Below, one piece after another: positions 14,502-14,585 of a DNA stretch of 64,000 nucleotides (its first letter is position 1; every line of letters starts with the position of its first letter). The notes under the pieces are model-generated. The model saw nothing but the letters and a program-made list of their open reading frames with translations. It ran no database searches and was not told where the DNA came from. Location of the stretch: assembly GCF_058153355.1 (NCBI RefSeq), contig NZ_CM177019.1. One strand, given 5' to 3'. The position numbers and the translations under genes are program-made.

Positions 14502-14585
14502 TGCCGGATGCGACGCTTGTCGCGTCTTATCCGGCCTGGGGGATTGCACATGTAGGGCGGATAAGGCGTTTACGCCGCATCCGCC
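14502..14585. repeat. BIME: two inverted REP elements between eutG and eutH
   Basis: tgccggatgcgacgcttgtcgcgtcttatccggcct and gtagggcggataaggcgtttacgccgcatccgcc in inverted orientation. Confidence 0.7.

Follow-up and report, generated by a model that had tools for sequence, protein, structure and literature searches.

The insertion sequence IS621 chooses its targets by pairing of a bridge RNA with 11 bases of DNA, ATC(G/A)GGC-CT-AC (Durrant 2024, PMC11208160), a target definition for which Hiraizumi 2024 (PMC11208158) is a further source. ATCGGGC-CT-AC is the sequence specified by the wild-type bridge RNA. In nature ATCAGGCCTAC predominates, because an A at position 4 is tolerated as an rG:dT pair (PMC11208160). 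Among the 173 insertion sites in BL21(DE3), 129 are ATCAGGCCTAC and 2 are ATCGGGCCTAC, which together account for 96.2% of insertions (PMC11208160). Off-target insertions are seen at sites with one or two mismatches, and double mismatches are poorly tolerated (Durrant et al., PMC11208160). The targeting of REP sequences by IS621 was demonstrated experimentally in 2003, according to the passage of PMC1525189 that cites Choi et al.

The window, the whole stretch of 64,000 nucleotides that was analysed (contig NZ_CM177019.1, assembly GCF_058153355.1), is of E. coli origin. It contains a spacer of 116 nt between eutG and eutH (14501-14616), which together with its neighbours comprises the following features:

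13313-14500, plus strand: eutG (NCBIfam NF011998, E = 1.2e-267)
14502-14537, plus strand: REP 1 of the BIME, tGCCGGATGCGACGC ttgtc GCGTCTTATCCGGCct (from the sequence, inverted repeat I2 and the REP pattern census)
14538-14552, no strand: linker between the REPs, gggggattgcacatg, 15-16 nt (from the sequence and the inverted-repeat search)
14553-14585, minus strand: REP 2 of the BIME, inverted, with the minus-strand reading GGCGGATGCGGCGTAAACGCCTTATCCGCCCTA (from the sequence and inverted repeat I4)
14617-15843, plus strand: eutH (NCBIfam NF011665, E = 2.3e-263)

Both REPs in the eut spacer are imperfect palindromes of about 34-35 nt that fit the E. coli REP consensus. The stem of REP 1 (inverted repeat I2, 14503-14516/14522-14535) is 14 nt long and 86% complementary, and the REP pattern census has a match at 14503-14536. 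The stem of REP 2 (14556-14569/14572-14585), from the inverted-repeat search, has the same length and complementarity. Inverted repeats I1 and I3 join REP 1 to REP 2 over the linker, so the opposed pair is a BIME. It is extragenic, lying after the eutG stop (14500) and before the eutH start (14617), and an insertion at 14537 would indeed fall inside the eut operon, as originally proposed. A query spanning the BIME finds a median of 4 matching places per genome. The terminal CTAC (GTAG) of the REP consensus is absent from REP 1 in the window strain and is replaced by CTGG, whereas REP 2 retains its CTAC end (GTAG). By what is known of REP elements, this BIME probably serves as a stabiliser of mRNA 3' ends and as a binding site for nucleoid proteins. 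The feature at 14502-14585 is most probably an ordinary BIME with two inverted REP hairpins, in which the eut REP is a very poor IS621 target; a rough probability of 0.85 is given to this reading.

The second locus of interest is at the left edge of the window:

1-1130, minus strand: IS621-family element, truncated by the left edge of the window, with its left end TGTATTATCCC starting at 1130 (alignment with the full copy L001)
939-1116, minus strand: bridge RNA gene, 178 nt (alignment to the published 177-nt IS621 bridge RNA, PMC11208160 Supplementary Table 2)
1131-1164, minus strand: occupied REP downstream of tktB, with the left target ATCCGGC at 1139 to 1133 and the core CT at 1132 to 1131 (12-mer and REP pattern)

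The transposase ORF of this element runs from 938 to 3 on the minus strand and matches the model of the IS110 RNA-guided transposase (NCBIfam NF033542, E = 2.9e-74). The element is 98-99.6% identical to copies annotated as 'IS110-like element IS621 family' in 1,651 genomes; within a set of 5,426 complete E. coli genomes, such copies occupy 13,123 places and are present in 2,244. This identity and the transposase model match agree with the earlier assignment of the occupant as an IS621-like member of the IS110 family. The minus-strand sequence across the junction is ...GCGTCTTATCCGGC-CT|TGTATTATCCC, and the left end is the same as in L001, whose flanks are ...ATCAGGC-CT|TGTAT...ACAGTAT-CT|AC.... 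An insertion at the CT after ATCCGGC in a REP, as had been proposed, is directly seen at the junction 1131-1142(-). The window copy comprises the left end and its CT core, and the right end is outside the window. The right half of the occupied tktB target also lies beyond the window, and positions 1-9 are visible. An empty tktB allele in NZ_CP043414 (strain EC42405) reads ATCCGGC-CT-AC-cgc, that is ATCCGGCCTAC, and by comparison with this strain the right flank of the window copy is probably AC. The tktB insertion of the window is found in none of the 5,426 complete genomes, and it is a rare event with a single mismatch, at position 4.

The tktB-ypfG spacer (window 1131-1200; L002 1460-1590) varies by strain. 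EC42405 has partial REP duplications (...caggccggataagacgcggtaggccggataagacgcg...), and the 13-nt unit ggcaatcagcatcc is present in three copies in this strain versus one in the window.

The leader RNA proposed at 939-1116 corresponds exactly to the bridge RNA, with the published guides and the expected predicted fold. In the predicted structure (-65.7 kcal/mol, z = -4.5), two loop domains accompany a 5' hairpin. Since the Rfam scan of the window gave tRNAs only and no bridge RNA family, the assignment is based on an alignment with the published RNA. Two bases are substituted and one is inserted relative to it; these changes are confined to the inner stem-loop of the target-binding loop, where the window copy has UUAGGUUUUCAACC and the published RNA has UUGGGUUCUAACC. 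The guides are the same as those published: the LTG is AUCGGGCCU (1067 to 1059) and the RTG is GUAG (1039 to 1036; extended UGCGUAG from 1042). The window copy sits at a ATCCGGCCTAC site that its own LTG does not fully pair, with rG:dG at position 4. Two other loci (L011 9920-10136 and L021 6719-6966) contain an IS621 variant with the LTG AUCCGGCCU and the RTG context GCGCGGUAG, yet with a ATCAGGCCT flank; position 4 of the guide varies naturally here without a matching change in the target.

The link originally drawn between the two loci is a shared 12-mer. CTTATCCGGCCT has exactly two copies in the window, 14526-14537(+) and 1131-1142(-), so the end of eut REP 1 and the minus-strand flank of the IS110-family element do share it, as claimed. 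The coordinates first given for the second copy, 1133-1144, need a shift of 2 nt. Read on the minus strand, this copy runs directly into the left end of the element (...cttATCCGGC-CT|TGTATTATCCC). No match to CTTATCCGGCCT is found in 100 dinucleotide-preserving shuffles of the window, a statistic that overstates significance, as the REPs are a repeat family to which both copies belong. The 12-mer represents the REP consensus, and E. coli-like metagenome contigs have 18 copies in 512 kb, or about one per 28 kb; about two copies are therefore expected per 64 kb, as in the window. The 12-mer is common to the eut and tktB REPs because they belong to the same REP family, and it indicates no special link to the IS. 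It also spans target positions 1-9 only, that is, the left target and the core.

The comparison with the guide concerns the whole 11-nt target, and an 11-mer scan of the window gives four sites:

14529-14539, plus strand: candidate target in eut REP 1, ATCCGGC-CT-GG, with mismatches at 4, 10, and 11 against ATCGGGC-CT-AC
14552-14562, minus strand: candidate target in eut REP 2, ATCCGCC-CT-AC, with mismatches at 4 and 6
37939-37949, minus strand: exact natural-consensus target ATCAGGCCTAC in a single REP between cysA and cysM
38967-38977, plus strand: exact natural-consensus target ATCAGGCCTAC, part of the BIME located downstream of cysM

Eut REP 1 has the CT core (14536-14537), C at position 4, and GG at positions 10-11. 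Against the guides, position 4 gives rG:dG, position 11 gives rG:dG, and position 10 gives at best an rU:dG wobble. IS621 picks its targets through the bridge RNA, which here specifies ATC(G/A)GGC-CT-AC, the A at position 4 being accepted as an rG:dT wobble. The tktB REP (ATCCGGC-CT-AC) has one true mismatch, at position 4, and belongs to a rare, documented class. The eut REP combines the mismatch at position 4 with only two core pairs of the RTG duplex, which would make it a very poor target. The eut REP of the window strain is an unlikely insertion site because the AC after CT, which is needed by the guide RNA, is missing. Insertion there would be expected at low efficiency, and a rare event may occur, given the published off-targets with one or two mismatches. 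The original prediction treated the eut REP as an equivalent candidate target, unless known insertion sites call for flanking bases that it lacks. The empty tktB allele has AC and the eut REP has GG at positions 10-11, so the equivalence does not stand and the reservation about flanking bases proves justified.

The REPs on both sides of cysM present a different case. They were noted to contain a related motif, and CTTATCAGGCCT is found at 37941-37952(-) and 38964-38975(+), with AC next in both. Both CTTATCAGGCCTAC REPs exactly match the known natural target ATCAGGCCTAC (PMC11208160), and position 4, a tolerated rG:dT wobble, is their sole mismatch to the guide. The long linker at 38967-38977 (…ctgtaatatattgaat…) resembles many natural IS621 target flanks (PMC11208160 Supplementary Data 2), and the cysA-cysM target is conserved in other E. 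coli. The REPs at 37939-37949(-) and 38967-38977(+) are the genuine sequence-perfect targets in the window. Of the candidate unoccupied targets first listed, the two cysM-flanking REPs match ATCAGGCCTAC exactly, and the eut REP, with mismatches at 4, 10, and 11, is not their equivalent. The cysM gene of the window shares about 94% identity with its counterpart in most E. coli, and identity exceeds 95% in only 28 records. Between cysM and yfeK, the window has a 244-aa ORF (39114-39848, minus strand) and the BIME, both of which N96 and BE2-5 lack.

Natural IS621 insertions are informative on the right flank. Supplementary Data 2 of Durrant (PMC11208160) includes 834 natural targets for this guide. 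Within this file ATCAGGCCT is present 614 times; the next base is A in 610 of these and G in 2, and the next two bases are AC in 596. Of the two natural ...CCTGC flanks, one or both are IS fragments. GG never follows ATCAGGCCT (0/614), and no entry has ATCCGGCCTGG in the target position. The right flank after the core is AC in all 14 natural IS621 insertions inspected: L001, 7 loci from metagenomes or genomes, and 6 elements inserted at ATCCGGCCT sites. A scan of GTDB genomes for right-end junctions found 4 loci, of which 1 was usable.

As to position 4, natural ATCCGGCCT/ATCCGGCCTAC insertions are found in the ruvB-znuB and yaaX-yaaA intervals. A search of the 5,426 genomes gives 27 places in 26 genomes, essentially two or three loci, for the junction GCGTCTTATC-C-GGCCT|LE, and 3,865 places in 1,177 genomes for GCGTCTTATC-A-GGCCT|LE. 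The C-type junctions are 143-fold rarer than the A-type. In the 626 kb of DNA sampled, empty sites of the two kinds, ATCCGGCCTAC and ATCAGGCCTAC, have similar frequencies, at 21 and 18. Among metagenome left-end junctions, 2 of 65 are ATCCGGCCT. The class with C at position 4 is rare but documented, and it is disfavoured, not forbidden.

A connection of such insertions with the variant inner stem-loop was considered and rejected; all six C-type insertions examined have the standard stem-loop. Five metagenome loci (L017, L048, L062, L063, and L065) contain a solo IS621 left-end fragment of about 60 nt. These fragments stop where the LTG-coding DNA begins and are followed by a REP (...GCATGCCTTATCCGACCTACGG...), with the same REP motif on the other side. 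They look like deletion products, formed when a REP recombined with the target-mimicking LTG-coding DNA.

The survey of E. coli genomes that had been called for was performed with a chimeric query, in which the 3' end of eutG is joined to the left end of the IS and to the reverse complement of its right end. About 69% coverage is expected for an IS621 of either orientation that lies no more than about 900 bp downstream of eutG. No IS621 end was found within this distance in 5,426 genomes (for 24 records, among the matches listed), and the best place containing eutG has 38% coverage, which is eutG alone. The copies looked for at the eut REP are absent from this set of E. coli genomes, with the same proviso for 24 records. 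The chimeric-query survey also gave zero insertions in 5,426 genomes at both cysM-flanking ATCAGGCCTAC sites, and IS621-like copies are missing from these REPs as well. Because the cysM-flanking sites returned no insertions, a known IS621 insertion by eco was used as the positive control, and it was recovered at 69% coverage. The empty eut locus is weak evidence because the conserved canonical cysA-cysM site is also empty in the 5,426 genomes. That the latter is empty despite about 13,000 IS621-family copies suggests selection against insertion or context effects. Individual IS621 insertions often appear to be strain-specific.

The eutG-eutH spacer is itself polymorphic. Across the E. coli loci L003-L008 it has one, two, or three tandem 100-nt BIME units, and the alternatives are a degenerate 100-nt remnant (L004) and an unrelated G+C-rich repeat that replaces the BIME (L005). 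The first eut REP has ATCCGGCCTAC with a CTAC end in ATCC 25922, THO-008, and OkiPb01708 (L003, L006, and L007), ATCCGGCCTTC in TH9F11, and ATCCGGCCTGG in the window strain. On balance it is rather probable that the eut BIME is a candidate target in other lineages, with one to three copies of ATCCGGC-CT-AC, and not in the window strain. The sequences of L003, L006, and L007 were read directly, their 11-mer is that of the empty tktB site, and natural ATCCGGCCTAC insertions are known at ruvB-znuB and yaaX-yaaA. Against it, the class is still disfavoured, with junctions 143-fold fewer than the A-type, and the eut locus is unoccupied in the 5,426 genomes (in 24 records, among the matches listed). 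This account of the other lineages is compatible with the main explanation, and the eut locus is a plausible, though disfavoured, target for IS621 in some lineages and a still poorer one in the window strain.

Three other explanations would keep the eut BIME of the window strain within the range of IS621. Eut REP 1 (14529-14539) could be a usable target of low efficiency, in which LTG pairing dominates and an insertion could inactivate eutHABCLKR by polarity. Its left nine target positions are those of the site that the IS actually used, the two core positions of the natural RTG, which is just 4 bp, are kept, and published off-target insertions include sites with one or two mismatches (PMC11208160). 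The guide differs from this REP at three positions, natural right flanks are AC in 14/14 cases and in 596/614 published ones with GG in none, and 0 of 5,426 genomes have an insertion at the locus (24 records: among the matches listed). A ATCCGGCCTGG REP is also empty in 7 metagenome contigs, representing one locus, that have an IS621 left-end junction elsewhere in the part of the contig analysed. Low-efficiency use of REP 1 is accordingly improbable. It has also been considered that the real candidate is REP 2 on the minus strand (14552-14562, ATCCGCC-CT-AC), which keeps the AC for the RTG. The CTAC is intact, and the 11-mer is conserved in every eutG-eutH BIME unit of the other strains examined. 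The site has two non-wobble LTG mismatches, at 4 and 6, of the double type that is poorly tolerated (PMC11208160). ATCCGCCCTAC occurs only once in the published target lists of IS621 relatives, under a different guide, and insertions at the eut locus number zero in the 5,426 genomes (among the matches listed for 24 records). A role of REP 2 as the real target is very improbable. Equally slight is the chance that the variant inner stem-loop of the window copy relaxes the discrimination at position 4 or in the RTG and extends the target pool to ATCCGGCCT-type REPs; if it did, operon-internal BIMEs like that of eutG-eutH would join the pool.

The preferred reading remains that of an ordinary BIME with a very poor IS621 target. 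The sharing of a REP motif is insufficient to call an IS621 target, and the full 11-nt sequence needs checking, including the AC after CT. Two sites in the window are perfect by the 11-nt rule and unoccupied, one on each side of cysM. The eut operon is at no particular risk in the window strain, and some other lineages have ATCCGGCCTAC in the same spacer. All observations fit biology that is already known, the REP targeting by IS621 since 2003 and the pairing rules since 2024.

Among the described systems, IS1397 and ISKpn1 of the IS3 family likewise insert specifically in E. coli BIMEs (PMC1525189). Unlike IS621, they rely on recognition through protein and structure, insert in the REP loop or linker, and use no guide RNA (PMC1525189); the eut BIME of the window has no element of this type. 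With the natural IS621 target, eut REP 1 shares the CT core, positions 1-3 and 5-9, and the location at the 3' end of the REP stem, where nearly all natural IS621 targets lie. It differs in having C at position 4 (rG:dG) where the natural target has G or A, and GG instead of AC at positions 10-11, which leaves two core pairs of the 4-bp RTG duplex. The eut pair is closest to the E. coli REP/BIME of Gilson, Bachellier, and Hofnung. Like these, it consists of GCCGGATGCG...CTTATCCGGCC palindromes that are extragenic within an operon, inverted, and separated by a short linker, and it belongs to a multi-copy family with a copy number that varies by strain. Eut REP 1 departs from this family in the loss of the CTAC end in the window strain, and is otherwise a usual member.
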